DNA from: Candidatus Saccharimonadales bacterium
Lineage (GTDB): Bacteria; Patescibacteriota; Saccharimonadia; Saccharimonadales; JACQNP01
Assembly: GCA_038257245.1 (NCBI GenBank)
Contig: JBBSJL010000004.1
Span: 1 to 56,338 of the forward strand
Direction of reading: 5' to 3'
DNA length: 56,338 nt
Shown: one piece after another, positions 27,770 to 33,688 of the stretch
How the letters are laid out: every line of letters starts with the position of its first letter
How positions within the stretch are numbered: position 1 is the stretch's first letter
The notes under the pieces: generated by a model
The model's input: only the letters and a program-made list of their open reading frames with translations
What the model was told of the DNA's origin: nothing
The model's database searches: none
Program-made: the position numbers and the translations under genes

Positions 27770-28618
27770 ATGTCAAAGACAAAAATAAAACAATTAATAT
27801 CATGGCAGCGGTTATCAGCTATTTTAGCGCTGATTTTTTTGGTTTTACTTAGTAGCGGTAGTCTTTTATTCGCGCAGGCAGTGACACAAGGATTTGGCTC
27901 GGATACTGACCTCCAAAAAGGCATGGTAGTACAGTTAGTTAAAGAAGATACTTCAAAGGTTGAACCAGTAAACTTAGAAAGTATCGAACAGATGTATGGA
28001 GTGGTAGTAGATGCAAATGATGCACCAGTTACTCTTTCTAACGAAGGTAGGAAGATATTTGTAGCAACCGTGGGGCCGTTTGATGTTTTGGTTAGTAACC
28101 AGAATGGTCCGATTAGTCCTAGCGATTATCTAACTATTTCTTCGGTAGAAGGTGTAGCCATGAAGGCGGGCGATTCACAACCTATTGTGGTCGGTCGGGC
28201 TCTAGAAGGGTTTGACGGCAGTAGTGACGTTGTCGGTAGTACGTCAGTAACAGACAACCTAGGTGCTACAAAAGACGTAAAATTTGCAAGAATTAGTGCC
28301 GACATTAGTGTATCTAGGAATCCTCTATTAAGGGGCGAGACAGCCAACGTACCGGAATTTCTGAAAAAGGCTTCAGAAGCGGTTGCGGGAAAACCGGTGG
28401 CAGCTACTAGAATTTACCTAGCAGTATTTGTTTTTTTGGTGAGCACCATTGCGGCGGGAAGTTTACTCTATGCAGGGGTCAGAAACGGCTTAATATCCAT
28501 AGGACGTAATCCTCTGAGCAAAAAATCAATCATTAGAGGAATGTTCCAAGTCATATTAACAGGATTAATAATTTTCATTACGGGGCTTTTTGCGGTATAT
28601 TTATTACTAAAGCTTTAA
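27770..28618 (+). CDS. Signal-anchored protein with a 200-aa extracytoplasmic domain and a C-terminal two-helix hairpin resembling an F-type ATPase c subunit (no carboxylate)
   Basis: The C-terminus is IYLAVFVFLVSTIAAGSLLYAGVRNGLISIGRNPLSKKSIIRGMFQVILTGLIIFITGLFAVYLLL. It reads as a Gly/Ala helix, a polar R-N-P loop and a second helix. It lies immediately upstream of atpF. Confidence 0.6.
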   Translation: MSKTKIKQLISWQRLSAILALIFLVLLSSGSLLFAQAVTQGFGSDTDLQKGMVVQLVKEDTSKVEPVNLESIEQMYGVVVDANDAPVTLSNEGRKIFVATVGPFDVLVSNQNGPISPSDYLTISSVEGVAMKAGDSQPIVVGRALEGFDGSSDVVGSTSVTDNLGATKDVKFARISADISVSRNPLLRGETANVPEFLKKASEAVAGKPVAATRIYLAVFVFLVSTIAAGSLLYAGVRNGLISIGRNPLSKKSIIRGMFQVILTGLIIFITGLFAVYLLLKL

Positions 28619-28646
28619 CATTTTATTAAGGGGTGGGTGATATCTA

Positions 28647-29267
28647 GTGGAAGCGTGGGCATTAGGATTAATATTGAGCAGTATACTAGCTGCAACGGTC
28701 GCATTTGTTTGGCTTGCGTCTAAATTAAGTGGTGGCAAAGCAGGCAAAAACTCCAACGATGCCTTTACCGAACAGGCAGAAAAAGATGTCGAGCATATCT
28801 TTAATGAAGAATTTCGTGAAGAACTTCGCAATAGAGGTAGATTACATTTCGAGAAGATTATTGGCGAAAACGCTATGTTCTTGCAACAAGATTTGCGCTT
28901 AACTACATCTCAGTTAAATGAGTATATGAAAACTGAAATTACTCGAAAACTTCAAGAAGAGTTTTCCAAATACGAAGAATCTATTACTGATGCTAAAGAG
29001 CTAGCGATAGATTCGATAAATAAAACCCAAGAAGCCATAGAGCAACAACGTAAGATGATGACCCAGCAGCTCAGCCAAGAGTTAGCTAATGAAAAAGCTC
29101 GTCTAGTAAAAAGATTCGAAGAAAACATGGCAGACATAGTTAATCACTACGTTTTGGCAGCCATTGGCGATCAGATTGACCTGAATGACCAATTAGAATT
29201 TATTCTGACAGATCTTGATGCCAATAAAGAAGCCATAATAAGAGATATTACTGATGGAGCAGGATAA
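28647..29267 (+). CDS. atpF: F-type ATP synthase subunit b-like stator protein
   Basis: GTG start with an AAGGGGTGGGTGA SD. One N-terminal TM is followed by a long charged coiled coil. It occupies the position before atpH. Confidence 0.65.
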   Translation: MEAWALGLILSSILAATVAFVWLASKLSGGKAGKNSNDAFTEQAEKDVEHIFNEEFREELRNRGRLHFEKIIGENAMFLQQDLRLTTSQLNEYMKTEITRKLQEEFSKYEESITDAKELAIDSINKTQEAIEQQRKMMTQQLSQELANEKARLVKRFEENMADIVNHYVLAAIGDQIDLNDQLEFILTDLDANKEAIIRDITDGAG

Positions 29268-29763
29268 CTCCATACTGTCATTACCAACGGCCGTAACGGG
29301 TCGTATGGATGTTGGGCGATTGGCTCGTGAGGTCGAAGCATTAGATAACTTTTTAGAGCAAGCTAATGTCAGAAAGCCCGGCACCGCTATTCAAATGCCT
29401 AAAACTAGCAGAATATTAGATGAGATTCTAGAACACAACAAGATCAATGCCCTTGTCGATGCAGACAGGCAAAGATTGTTAAACTTCTTAATTACCGTTA
29501 GGGCCAAAGCACCGATTTTGCATATGAGTTTTAGCGCTGATCCCTCACCAATTTTTACTCAAAAGTTAGTAGTGTGGTTACGTGAAAACATTCATCCTTT
29601 GGTGCTGATTCAGATTGGGCTACAGCCCAATATTGGGGCAGGCTGTGTAATACGTTCAACAAATAAGTATTTTGATTTAAGTTTGCGTCAGCACTTTGCT
29701 AAACAACAGGAGCTGCTAATGCTTAAAATTCATGGCGCAACGTCCAGCGAGGTTCCGAAGTAA
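29254..29763 (+). CDS. atpH: F-type ATP synthase subunit delta (OSCP)-like
   Basis: The C-terminal LQPNIGAGCVIRSTNKYFDLSLRQHF resembles the delta consensus dp.liGG..v..gd...D.S.r. The gene order also fits. Confidence 0.65.
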   Translation: MEQDNSILSLPTAVTGRMDVGRLAREVEALDNFLEQANVRKPGTAIQMPKTSRILDEILEHNKINALVDADRQRLLNFLITVRAKAPILHMSFSADPSPIFTQKLVVWLRENIHPLVLIQIGLQPNIGAGCVIRSTNKYFDLSLRQHFAKQQELLMLKIHGATSSEVPK

Positions 29764-31193: not shown

Positions 31194-32047
31194 AACGCCC
31201 TAATGAAATAGAAGTAGAAGAAAGAGCCATGGCTACTTTGGTTGAACTTACTGGAGTTTTCGAAGGTATTGCAAGTATGCGAATTGCTCAGATTAAAAAC
31301 CAGGTACTACAGGCCACTATGTTTTTTGACGATTTATGGCACATATATTCTCAGCTTCGGGTGGACGGGCTTTTTAGATTTGGTAGAAGCCAGACGGATG
31401 TAGAAGTTATCGATAAAGAGCTATATATTGTTATTACAGCCGAGGGAGGGTTTAGTGGTGACATTGACCAAAAACTTATCCAATTGATGCTAAAAACATA
31501 TGATAAAGAGAAAAACGCGATTATTGTTATTGGACATCATGGCGCAATACAGCTAGCACAGAGAGGTATTTCTTATGAAAAATACTTCAAATTACCCGTC
31601 AAGGACAAGAACATAAATGTAACACCAATCATCCGTGAGGTCCAAAAATACAAAACCACCATGGTTTACTACCAAGAGTATGTTTCGTTAATGGTTCAAG
31701 ATGTTAAAAAGATTGAACTATCAGCAGTCGTAAAAGAACAAAGTAAGCTGACAACTGACAAAGAAGAAATAATCAGTGAATCAAACTATATTTTTGAACC
31801 AAGTACTTACGATGTAGTCGATCACCTAGAGCGGTCGATGATGCAGATATCAATAAGTCAATTAATACTTAATTCCAAGCTAGCTCAATACGCTTCAAGA
31901 TTCAGGGCTATGTCGGCGTCTCACGAAAGGTCAGAAGAAGCCAAATCCGATCTTCACATGGAATACAACCGAGCCCGACGGGGTATTAAGGACCAGCGTC
32001 TCAAAGAGATTATTAACGGTCTTAGAAAAGCAAAGGCAGAATTATGA
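31190..32047 (+). CDS. atpG: F-type ATP synthase subunit gamma
   Basis: The N-terminal helix ([13 protein letters not shown]) and the C-terminal helix ([41 protein letters not shown]) fit gamma. An ATGA overlap couples it to atpA. Confidence 0.85.
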
Positions 32048-33351
32048 GTAATGGCGTAATTGTTTCTATCAAAGACCTTATTGTCAGAGCCCAATTCGAC
32101 GAAGGATCACCAAGAATTGGTGAGCTAGTTGTAGTCGACAATGGTCACGAAACCAAACTGCTAGTAGACCACCTCGAACCTGGGGGCATTGCCATGTGTC
32201 TTAACGTTCGTTCTGATCGTAGAATTCAAAAAGGTATGCCTGTACTAAGAACAGGTAAGGGTATAGAAGTGCCTACCGGTGATAAAACCATTGGGCGAAT
32301 ATTGGATGCATTGGGTGGCTCACTTGATGGACAACCCGAAATTACCGGTGATGACATCGTATACAAAGACATTATGAAATTACCAGAGCGTTCAACCGAT
32401 TTTTCAGTGTCAAAACCAGAAATTCTAGAAACAGGTATCAAGGTCATAGACTTCTTTACTCCATTTGTAAAAGGAAGAAAAATTGGGATTATTGGCGGTG
32501 CAGGTGTCGGTAAGACGGTACTCACCATGGAGCTTATTAATAACATTGCCAAAAGTGGCAGCGGTCTTTCATTCTTTGCAGGTATTGGTGAGCGTATTCG
32601 TGAGGGTCATGAACTGTGGGACACATTACGTGAAAACGATCTACTTAAAAATACCTGTATGTTTTTCGGACAAATGAATGAAAATCCAGTACAAAGGTCG
32701 TTAGTAGCTGTTTCTGCTGTTGCTTTGGCCGAATATTTTCGTGATGAGCGCGGAAAAGACATTTTATTTTTCGCAGATAACATGTATCGATTCATACAAG
32801 CCCGCAACGAACTAGCTACAATTTTGGATCAAGTTCCAAACGAAGGTGGCTACGAACCAACAATATTCTCAGACATAAAAGTACTTCAAGATAGGCTTAG
32901 TTCTAACGAAAAAGGCTCAATTACTTCAGTACAGACTATTTACGTGCCAGCAGACGACCTTTCTGACCCGGCTGTGCAGCTAATTCAGCATGAATTGGAC
33001 TCCACAGTTGTACTTTCACGTAAAGTTGCTGAGCAGGGTGTTAGGCCTGCTGTTGATCTAAACCAGACTAGCTCGTCTTTACTTACACCAGACATAGTAG
33101 GCGATAGGCATTATTTACTTAGTGTCCAGGTTCTAGCAATGCTTCAGAAGTATGAATCACTGAAGGGTATTATTGCGATTATTGGTGAAAACGAATTATC
33201 ACCTTCTGACAGAGCAGACTATGCCAAGGCTAAGAAACTAATTGAGAATTTCACACAAAATATGAATGTTATGGAAAAACATAATGGTATCCCAGGAGAT
33301 TTCTTTACTAGAGAACAAACCTTACAAAGTATAGAGGAAATAATCGCATAA
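32044..33351 (+). CDS. atpD: F-type ATP synthase subunit beta
   Basis: The P-loop is [28 protein letters not shown] and [11 protein letters not shown] are also present. Confidence 0.9.
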
Positions 33352-33367
33352 CGTATGATTGAATAGT

Positions 33368-33688
33368 ATGGCAGACGAAGTAGTCCCACCAGCAGCCCAA
33401 GACAGTAAACCAGCAATCAAAGAAAAGGTTGATACGGGTGATTCAGATCACATGCACATTAAAGTTTACGCTCCGTTCAAGGTTTATTTTGATGGAATTG
33501 CAACCAGCATTTCAGCCGCAAACGATACGGGGCCCTTTGATATATTGCCGGGGCACCACAACTTCATGACTTTAATAAGCCAAGGCGAGGTAATTGTCCG
33601 AACAGACAAAGGCGAAGAAAAGTTTAAAATATCTCACGGTATTATGCATGTAAAAGCCGATGACGTTGTAGTCTTTCTAGACGTTTAA
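33368..33688 (+). CDS. atpC: F-type ATP synthase subunit epsilon (beta-sandwich only)
   Basis: HIKVYAPFKVYFDG...GPFDILPGHHNFMTLISQGEVIV fits epsilon. There is no C-terminal helical hairpin. I chose ATG at 33368; the track starts at TTG 33359. Confidence 0.75.
   Translation: MADEVVPPAAQDSKPAIKEKVDTGDSDHMHIKVYAPFKVYFDGIATSISAANDTGPFDILPGHHNFMTLISQGEVIVRTDKGEEKFKISHGIMHVKADDVVVFLDV

Follow-up and report, generated by a model that had tools for sequence, protein, structure and literature searches.

The closest described counterparts of the system considered here are the F1-like X0 ATPases of mycoplasmas (Types 2 and 3), which are encoded by seven-gene clusters without b or delta subunits (PMC3369863, PMC12994834). 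Type 2, the G1-ATPase of Mycoplasma mobile, drives gliding, whereas Type 3 (MSC_0618-0624 / MMCAP2_0575-0581), which is associated with the MIB-MIP system, is needed for antibody cleavage; for both, a transfer of force through the membrane has been proposed (PMC12994834, PMC11864180). In a 2026 paper, the F1-like X0 ATPase is described as 'specific to mycoplasmas'. Here we analyze a seven-gene block, positions 27770-33688, of a 56,338 nt contig (hereinafter, the window) of Candidatus Saccharimonadales bacterium (GCA_038257245.1, JBBSJL010000004.1), a member of the Candidate Phyla Radiation (CPR) of bacteria, in which genes for b-, delta-, alpha-, gamma-, beta- and epsilon-like subunits of F-type ATPases are preceded by a gene for a 282-aa membrane protein, hereinafter the head protein. 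We estimate at about 0.6 the probability that this block encodes a self-contained second F1-like rotary-type ATPase that does not translocate ions and passes ATP-driven force to the cell surface through a membrane partner derived from the c subunit. No description of an F1-like ATPase in CPR was found in the searchable literature, and the module, a widespread one, can be seen as the apparently undescribed equivalent in CPR of the F1-like ATPases of mycoplasmas.

An F1-like cluster without a and c genes

The seven open reading frames (ORFs) are closely packed (Table 1), with overlaps of 14, 1, 4 and 4 nt and spacings of 28 and 7 nt elsewhere. The Pfam scan matched none of the seven proteins to ATP-synt_A or ATP-synt_C, no c-subunit ORF was found in the six-frame translation of the full window, and neither an a nor a c gene was seen in the window. 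The gene block is a real observation, not an annotation artefact, and both the missing a and c genes and the tight or overlapping starts agree with the original prediction, made from the nucleotide sequence alone.

Table 1. Features of the seven-gene block (positions in the window; bit scores on NCBIfam equivalog models with the respective cut-offs)
Feature	Length or residues	Position	Strand	NCBIfam score	Remarks
Head protein	282 aa	27770..28618	+
Signal peptide / N-terminal anchor	residues 1-37	27770..27880	+		ends with a cleavage-type site, ..FAQA/VTQG; cleavage predicted
Extracytoplasmic all-beta domain	residues ~38-195	27881..28354	+		predicted fold like phage capsid decoration/cement/preneck-appendage barrels
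C-terminal transmembrane hairpin	residues 209-282	28394..28615	+		F-type c homologue; Leu266 at the carboxylate position; Gln260 invariant
Cytoplasmic loop G-R-N-P-L		28502..28516	+		counterpart of the c-subunit R-Q/N-P loop; present in 229/229 family members
b-like peripheral-stalk candidate	206 aa	28647..29267	+
Delta/OSCP-like protein	169 aa	29254..29763	+
F1-like alpha	476 aa	29763..31193	+	atpA, 391 bits (cut-off 484)
F1-like gamma	285 aa	31190..32047	+	TIGR01146, 81 bits (cut-off 194)
F1-like beta	435 aa	32044..33351	+	atpD, 413 bits (cut-off 463)
Short epsilon	109 aa	33359..33688	+	46 bits (cut-off 67)

The identities of the alpha, gamma, beta and epsilon subunits are confirmed by both Pfam and NCBIfam (Pfam E-values 4.6e-67 for alpha with ATP-synt_ab, 4.3e-29 for gamma with ATP-synt, 1.2e-63 for beta, and 2.5e-14 for epsilon with ATP-synt_DE_N), and all four score under the NCBIfam equivalog cut-offs; for comparison, a canonical beta subunit (P0153) reaches 814 bits on the atpD model. 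As read from the translations, alpha has the Walker A motif GDSKSGKST and keeps the Arg-finger context GIRPAVN, and beta keeps the Walker motif, the Walker B Asp and YVPADD, with NELSPSD in place of DELSEED, so that the F1-like head is predicted to be catalytically intact. The match of epsilon to Pfam spans residues 32-107 and covers the beta-sandwich alone, without the C-terminal helical domain; its orthologues are 92-101 aa long. Both the divergent P-loop of alpha and the lack of the helical domain of epsilon had been noticed in the original prediction.

The closest beta representatives among 1.84 billion proteins are just 41-49% identical to the window protein. Many of the best beta relatives are 570-870 aa long, with long N- or C-terminal extensions, and some of these look mitochondrial; a lone 648-aa beta-like gene with 47% identity (L009:5567-7513; here and below, L numbers denote loci in our collection) is located, on a short contig from ENA, beside a G6PD gene. 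In loci L001 and L004, gene callers place the start of the alpha orthologue within the delta-like gene, for a length of 501-506 aa. The longest possible alpha ORF is 476 aa in the window and in locus L071, which implies that the N-terminal segment ahead of the beta-barrel, normally the delta-binding one, is short (~18 residues).

The delta-like protein of the window is marginal when taken alone (OSCP E 0.078 in Pfam, NCBIfam delta 0.007); given that Pfam OSCP is matched in 35 of 43 orthologues (best E 7.3e-6), the label is sound. In the b-like protein, a single N-terminal transmembrane helix leads into an extended helical region, and the alignment of orthologues reveals a strongly conserved membrane-proximal block there (FNxEFREELRNRGRLHFEKII..FLQQDL). 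Pfam ATP-synt_B is touched in 6 of the 43 orthologues (best E 2.5e-4), amid coiled-coil noise, and no relative was detected in the PDB by sequence. With respect to the originally predicted order of b-like, delta-like, alpha, gamma, beta and epsilon, the F1 parts and the delta-like protein therefore hold by database matches, and the b-like protein mainly by position and topology.

When one genome was searched for each GTDB species, relatives of the head gene turned up in 216 species. The best 80 of the 216 are essentially all metagenome-assembled genomes (MAGs) of Saccharibacteria/Saccharimonadales, including a complete 1.19-Mb chromosome. The order of all seven genes is the same in 65 loci out of 89, contig ends truncating most of the others, and the survey of relatives that had been suggested along with the prediction finds the head gene at the same position, upstream of the b-like gene, in related loci. 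The same seven-gene architecture is present in two Microgenomates loci, L007:5183-11781, which was reached through a relative of beta, and L091:4746-10644, beside ribosomal protein genes (L10/L12, L1/L11). The head proteins in these loci are 256-290 aa long (290 aa in L007), with an IEAIGRNPLA loop and, in helix 2, Asn instead of Gln; the L007-type head family is named from Daviesbacteria and Blackburnbacteria. The flanks of the module are syntenic in Saccharimonadales, with a NifS-like gene upstream in 75 of 75 loci (in the window, a NifS-type class-V aminotransferase, Pfam 5e-59, in agreement with the cysteine desulfurase predicted at this site) and a gene for a bactofilin-like membrane protein downstream in 53 of 55. 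Because the seven genes are shared by both clades with different neighbors, they can be considered a unit. A functional link to the NifS-like and bactofilin-like neighbors, which are absent from the Microgenomates loci, was rejected as unsupported. A contig with a Saccharibacteria-type cluster (L032, DATHJH010000036.1) is deposited as 'Candidatus Limnocylindria bacterium' (Chloroflexota), a label that probably reflects a binning error rather than transfer.

The relationship of the module to canonical F1Fo is illustrated by the MAG RIFCSPHIGHO2_12_FULL_41_12 (GCA_001790445), which carries the full seven-gene module (locus L071). The published COG counts for this genome are one each for AtpE, AtpB, AtpF and AtpH and two each for AtpA, AtpD, AtpG and AtpC (Mahendrarajah et al., 2023, PMC10656485, Supplementary Data 4). 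Such counts are just what would be seen if the module coexisted with a canonical F1Fo and its head, b-like and delta-like proteins escaped COG assignment; on the strength of the single c, a, b and delta and the doubled alpha, beta, gamma and epsilon, the module is taken to be a second complex and not a truncated atp operon. The arrangement parallels that of mycoplasmas, in which Type 1 is accompanied by Type 2 or 3. Other genomes have a single set: one copy of each of eight subunits in RAAC3 (Mahendrarajah et al., 2023, PMC10656485), one canonical atpI-a-c-b-delta-alpha-gamma-beta-epsilon operon in the cultured Southlakia epibionticum (PMC10633639), where the supplements of the same paper list just two PF00006 proteins, and one canonical gene per subunit in rhodopsin-bearing freshwater Saccharibacteria (PMC9296517, Table S1). 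Within ±10 kb of the cluster, no a or c gene was found in the 89 loci. The search with beta representatives recovered other F1-like groups but not canonical Saccharibacteria sequences, and the search seeded with a canonical CPR c subunit from locus L092 recovered c subunits of Woesebacteria, Moranbacteria and Paceibacterota, none of them named Saccharibacteria. L092 (L092:4911-10612, Logan SRR21285598) is itself a canonical-type CPR atp operon that consists of atpI, a, c, a 66-aa ORF, a 122-aa b, alpha, gamma, beta and a 76-aa epsilon, without a recognizable delta and with the usual Glu in the c subunit.

A c-derived hairpin behind a secreted domain

Homologues of the head protein form 2186 protein clusters, nearly all annotated as hypothetical and mostly of exactly 282 aa. 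In the AlphaFold2 (AF2) model of the window protein (pLDDT, the predicted local distance difference test score, 79.6), a helix at the N-terminus precedes an all-beta domain (residues 39-183), which is followed by a short helix and by a hairpin of two helices (212-243 and 249-281). The link of this hairpin to the c subunit was traced through the Microgenomates homologues. BLASTP aligns the window protein with one of these (P0316) over 186 residues, hairpin included, with E 6e-8. Two of the Microgenomates homologues carry the JGI label 'ATP synthase membrane subunit c', and their loop, K-G-I-E-A-I-G-R-N-P-L-A, is near the IEGIARQPE of c subunits. NCBIfam c-subunit models are matched in 33 of 60 Microgenomates homologues (best E 4.7e-8) and Pfam ATP-synt_C in 16 of 60 (best E 3.3e-5), these matches being sub-threshold and thus showing homology, not family membership.

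Profile and structure comparisons point in the same direction. In hhalign, a profile of 229 hairpin sequences aligns with six classical c subunits over 69-71 columns, with a probability of 89.6-93.9% and scores of 35.7-41.3, against 9.7±1.9 (maximum 15.9) for 150 column-shuffled c alignments and 12-15 for reversed alignments. The window hairpin is matched by Foldseek to the c subunit of Chloroflexus aurantiacus with a TM-score of 0.8 and a root-mean-square deviation (rmsd) of 1.8 Å, and over all matches to c subunits the target-normalized TM-score (TMt) is 0.75-0.87; dozens of c subunits of known structure fit the AF2 model of a Microgenomates member with an rmsd of 1.3-2.1 Å at 19-29% identity. 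The canonical CPR c subunit of L092 has the same R-N-P loop (..GMARNPQ..), with Glu at +20 from the Arg. Since BLASTP, the matches to c models, hhalign against its controls and Foldseek agree, the hairpin of the head protein is demonstrably related to, and derived from, the F-type c subunit. The Gly/Ala-rich hairpin with an R-N-P loop that had been read from the window sequence is therefore real, with GRNPL invariant among 229 relatives. The additional likeness of G(V/I)xNGLI to Bacillus c subunits does not hold: when the hairpin is aligned with c subunits the motif is out of register, and it lacks conservation in the family, whose consensus is GGVRSAIISIGRNPL.

In the hhalign register, D61 of Escherichia coli aligns with Leu266 of the window protein. 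The aligned position is occupied by Leu, Met or Ile in all 120 Saccharibacteria and by Val, Ile, Leu or Ala in 104 of 109 Microgenomates members. Asp or Glu is present in the core of helix 1 in none of the 229 members and in that of helix 2 in 2 of the 229, so that the lack of Asp and Glu originally seen in both helices of the window protein is a conserved feature. What is conserved in helix 2 is an amide: all 120 Saccharibacteria members have Gln at +14, counted from the Arg of the loop, and 95 of the 109 Microgenomates members have Asn at +15. From the established mechanism of F-ATPases we infer that, with neither the carboxylate nor an a subunit, Fo-type ion translocation is excluded and the module would be unable to couple to H+ or Na+. 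In F-ATPases, the R-Q/N-P loop of the c subunit is the docking site of gamma and epsilon; by analogy, the GRNPL loop may dock the module's gamma- and epsilon-like subunits.

The first ~200 aa of the head protein, originally proposed to be a signal-anchored extracytoplasmic domain, indeed contain a signal peptide and a beta domain according to the AF2 model and the alignment. The N-terminus is basic and is followed by a hydrophobic helix (residues 12-30 in the AF2 model); in an alignment of 30 members, A35, Q36, T39 and G41 are conserved or invariant, the AQA-type end of the signal peptide and the beta domain are conserved, and the C-terminal ..SIGRNPLSKKSIIRGMFQVIITGLIIFI.G.FGVYLLLKL is the most conserved part. 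Foldseek relates the beta domain to PDB chains of phage capsid decoration or cement proteins (8hdt_G, 9ocb_K and 9kzj_H; E ~1e-3, TMt 0.5-0.64) and, in BFVD, to domains of the phage 'preneck appendage barrel' type and other phage structural domains (E 2e-7). Among 60 Microgenomates head homologues, Phage_cement_2 of Pfam is matched in 8 and XM1_gp53_minor_capsid in 8, and the AF2 model of a Microgenomates member (pLDDT 90.9) is matched by Foldseek to outer-shell chains of the phage BB1 procapsid. Comparison of the head gene with close relatives yields a nonsynonymous rate (dN) of 0.16-0.21 with a saturated synonymous rate (dS); the ectodomain is under purifying selection and is conserved in length.

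Known rotary ATPases and the genomic neighborhood

The CPR module resembles the Type 2 and Type 3 systems of mycoplasmas in several respects. Both are seven-gene clusters with alpha-, beta-, gamma- and epsilon-like subunits in which the catalytic motifs are intact, and both lack an a subunit and an ion-binding c. The mycoplasma clusters are additional to a genuine F1Fo, as the CPR module seems to be in the relative GCA_001790445. In both systems, one subunit combines a signal peptide and an ectodomain with two transmembrane helices at the C-terminus, a similarity of topology only, and both belong to genome-reduced, host-dependent bacteria, with force transmission to the surface proposed in each case. 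Unlike the mycoplasma clusters, the CPR cluster lacks the protein with 12 transmembrane helices and the small cytoplasmic protein of the DUF2714 type and has a b-like and OSCP-like stalk instead; the order of genes is also different, with the head gene at the start and the gamma gene flanked by those of alpha and beta. Furthermore, the CPR alpha and beta score higher on the canonical atpA and atpD models than on MSC_0619 and MSC_0618 (260/520 and 361/570 bits, score/cut-off, for the window proteins; 322/600 and 343/850 on the MMOB1660 and MMOB1670 models). Homology of the hairpin to the mycoplasma subunit with two transmembrane helices (L093) was considered and not detected: the latter has no RNP loop, scores -2.7 bits on the hidden Markov model (HMM) of the CPR hairpin and shows no similarity to the c-subunit profile. 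Judged from these comparisons, the CPR module is analogous to, and not a member of, the mycoplasma F1-like X0 families; its origin is probably independent of the mycoplasma X0, the simplest reading being that it derives from the CPR's own F1Fo.

Compared with F-type c subunits (PF00137/TIGR01260), the CPR hairpin has the same predicted topology, in which the R-N/Q-P loop faces the cytoplasm and the two termini lie on the outer side, and a predicted structure that superposes. Unlike these, it has Leu, Met or Val in helix 2 in place of the carboxylate and is fused behind a secreted domain of ~200 aa, and the window protein reaches no c-subunit HMM threshold. The gene order downstream of the head gene (b, delta, alpha, gamma, beta, epsilon) is that of the canonical atpIBEFHAGDC operon, in contrast to which the CPR cluster lacks the a subunit and has F1 subunits under the equivalog cut-offs. 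Like the N-ATPase (AtpDCQRBEFAG), the module is taken to be a second F-type cluster alongside a canonical one. However, the N-ATPase keeps a and c, with a Na+-type carboxylate site, as well as AtpQ and AtpR, whereas the CPR cluster has neither a nor c; on the alt_F1F0 models, the window beta scores 370 vs 752 bits and alpha 325 vs 750.

A third kind of F1-like cluster was encountered in L090:4199-11890 (GCA_050874105.1, JBNMKA010000001.1). It consists of genes for a 524-aa protein without assigned function, an 81-aa c-like protein, a 269-aa protein with an N-terminal transmembrane helix and alpha-, gamma- and beta-like subunits, followed by three further proteins, and is flanked by giant ORFs of >1434 and >3453 aa. 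As in the CPR module, the c-like protein, which passes the threshold of Pfam ATP-synt_C (34 bits) and scores 23.5 bits on the CPR hairpin HMM, lacks the carboxylate of helix 2, has a GRNPE loop and is encoded beside alpha-, gamma- and beta-like genes with no a gene. Unlike the head protein, it stands alone, without an ectodomain, and the other accessory genes differ.

Several neighbors of the cluster in the window are worth recording. Between the TatD and the NifS-like genes (25884-26548, + strand) lie two small ORFs without a family, of 98 and 122 aa, the latter kept in 69 of 75 related loci and the former detected in none. The downstream neighbor (33693-34661, - strand), converging on the end of the epsilon gene, encodes a 322-aa membrane protein with a weak, sub-threshold match to a bactofilin-type beta-helix (Pfam 8e-5). 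It is followed by six successive genes (34793-40869, + strand; 231, 256, 429, 352, 334 and 308 aa) whose products begin with a signal or anchor sequence and reach the threshold of no Pfam family, with weak WxL-interacting and PKD matches. The 256-aa gene of this run is found downstream in 49 of 51 loci, and the run may be a cell-surface protein island.

Proposed mechanism, alternatives and implications

In the machine that we propose, the motor would be an alpha3beta3 head with gamma and the short epsilon, and the peripheral stalk would combine the single-pass b-like coiled-coil protein with the OSCP-like delta. The membrane partner would be an oligomer of the head protein, most simply a ring resembling the c-ring, in which the GRNPL loops would hold gamma and epsilon in the way known for the RQP loops of c-rings and each hairpin would display a phage-decoration-like beta domain outside the cell. 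Hydrolysis of ATP would turn, twist or strain the hairpin assembly, and the output would be the movement of an external crown, that is, mechanical work at the cell surface and not ion transport; the host surface, the cell wall and the S-layer are candidate targets of the crown. Among the readings listed in the original prediction, that of an F1-like module with a non-canonical membrane partner is the best supported, with the seven genes kept together in two CPR clades and the canonical set next to duplicated alpha, beta, gamma and epsilon in GCA_001790445. In its most specific form, the proposal is that of an outward-facing CPR rotary machine, an ion-blind c-ring with a crown of phage-decoration-like domains that an F1-like ATPase spins or torques for extracellular work of episymbionts, perhaps in attaching to or detaching from a host, in moving over surfaces or in remodeling the envelope, which would amount to an independent second invention of the motor principle of mycoplasma gliding and MIB-MIP. 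This form is offered tentatively, as a possibility that we consider doubtful in its full extent.

Several observations weigh against the proposed force-transmitting ATPase. The weakest point is the absence of an a-like stator in the membrane: with the b-like transmembrane helix in its place, the ring may slip or the assembly may lock. The b-like assignment is itself weak, and ring formation, the contact with gamma and epsilon and rotation are steps that we infer. The window head protein has no match at E<=1 to the Pfam and NCBIfam models of the c and a subunits, scores 1.7 bits on a purpose-built c HMM and finds no match in a sequence-profile search of the PDB. Moreover, a narrow Saccharibacteria profile aligns with c subunits in hhalign at a probability of just 5.7%, the link becoming visible only once the Microgenomates clade is added; as far as sequences go, the homology of the window protein to c is transitive, via this sister clade. 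The original prediction had named canonical a and c genes elsewhere in the genome, combined with a lack of similarity to ATP-synt_C, as the outcome that would speak against it, and the result on the second count is divided, with no HMM match for the window protein and matches for the Microgenomates homologues (4.7e-8). The evidence of co-occurrence with a canonical F1Fo is limited, coming from the published count table of one MAG that is a relative of the window genome and could be affected by binning error. Finally, the module was not found in the cultured Saccharibacteria examined, and the window sequence was matched in one soil DNA metagenome run only and in none of the RNA runs.

A serious rival, even if an unlikely one, is a non-rotary tethered ATPase. 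The F1-like hexamer would then be anchored by the b-like protein together with a monomer or small oligomer of the head protein, and ATP-driven movements of gamma, short of full rotation, would change the shape of the ectodomain or of a partner. The missing a-like stator fits such a conformational switch, as does the unusually conserved membrane-proximal block of the b-like protein, which could bind the hairpin directly. However, all the rotary elements of F1 are kept, namely gamma, epsilon, the OSCP-like delta, the stalk and seemingly intact catalytic sites, and so are the c-type hairpin and its loop, which, to our knowledge, form rings in all known cases.

Less probable still is a shared Fo, with the second F1 and stalk docking on the canonical a and c subunits and the head protein assisting in assembly or regulation or serving as another kind of accessory; without a carboxylate, it might, for instance, insert into the canonical c-ring as a c-like subunit or cap that ring. 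Hybrid c-rings containing carboxylate-less hairpins are found in Acetobacterium woodii, canonical a and c genes co-occur with the module in GCA_001790445, and the loop motif of the c-like hairpin is the same as in the canonical CPR c subunit. Against this, the head gene is always the first one, is packed with its own F1 and stalk set and moves together with that set to different contexts in the two clades, and none of the 89 loci has an a or c gene within ±10 kb; the bulky 170-aa ectodomain on each hairpin and the conserved hydrophobic residue at the carboxylate site also argue for a dedicated homo-oligomer. Of the originally suggested accessory factor derived from c, with a and c encoded elsewhere, the derivation from c and the co-occurrence of a canonical set in a relative stand, whereas the accessory role does not agree with a head protein that leads its own F1 and stalk set.

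Two further explanations are very improbable. An internal start at the in-frame GTG codon of V210 (VAATRIY...), which had been suggested to yield a real c subunit of ~73 aa, was rejected: the window codon is GTG, but among 45 distinct orthologues the codon of Val210 is GTT in 17, GTA in 10, GTC in 9 and GTG in 9 (36 of the 45 thus lacking GTG), no Shine-Dalgarno-like sequence was found upstream of V210, the product would still lack the carboxylate, and the ectodomain that would be bypassed appears to be selectively maintained at a conserved length. Decay of a duplicated atp operon into a non-functional remnant, which the low scores of the four F1 subunits and the truncated epsilon might suggest, is hard to reconcile with seven genes intact in nearly every sufficiently long locus, a head gene present in 216 species, intact catalytic motifs, many invariant residues and low dN at saturated dS.

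In Saccharibacteria MAGs, counts based on KEGG or COG can report an 'F-type ATPase', and thereby imply ATP synthesis linked to the proton motive force, on account of additional alpha, beta, gamma and epsilon genes that may belong to this ion-blind module. F1-like ATPases that pump no ions are so far on record only for mycoplasmas. A conserved counterpart of the mycoplasma systems in hundreds of CPR species would make the re-use of F1 for non-bioenergetic work a recurrent feature of reduced, host-dependent bacteria. The membrane partner, still recognizable as a c subunit minus the carboxylate plus an ectodomain, provides a testable model for the origin of X0 from Fo and for what gamma and epsilon push against, and the outward-facing machine, if true, would show an evolutionary intermediate between the Fo c subunit and X0 that is missing in mycoplasmas.

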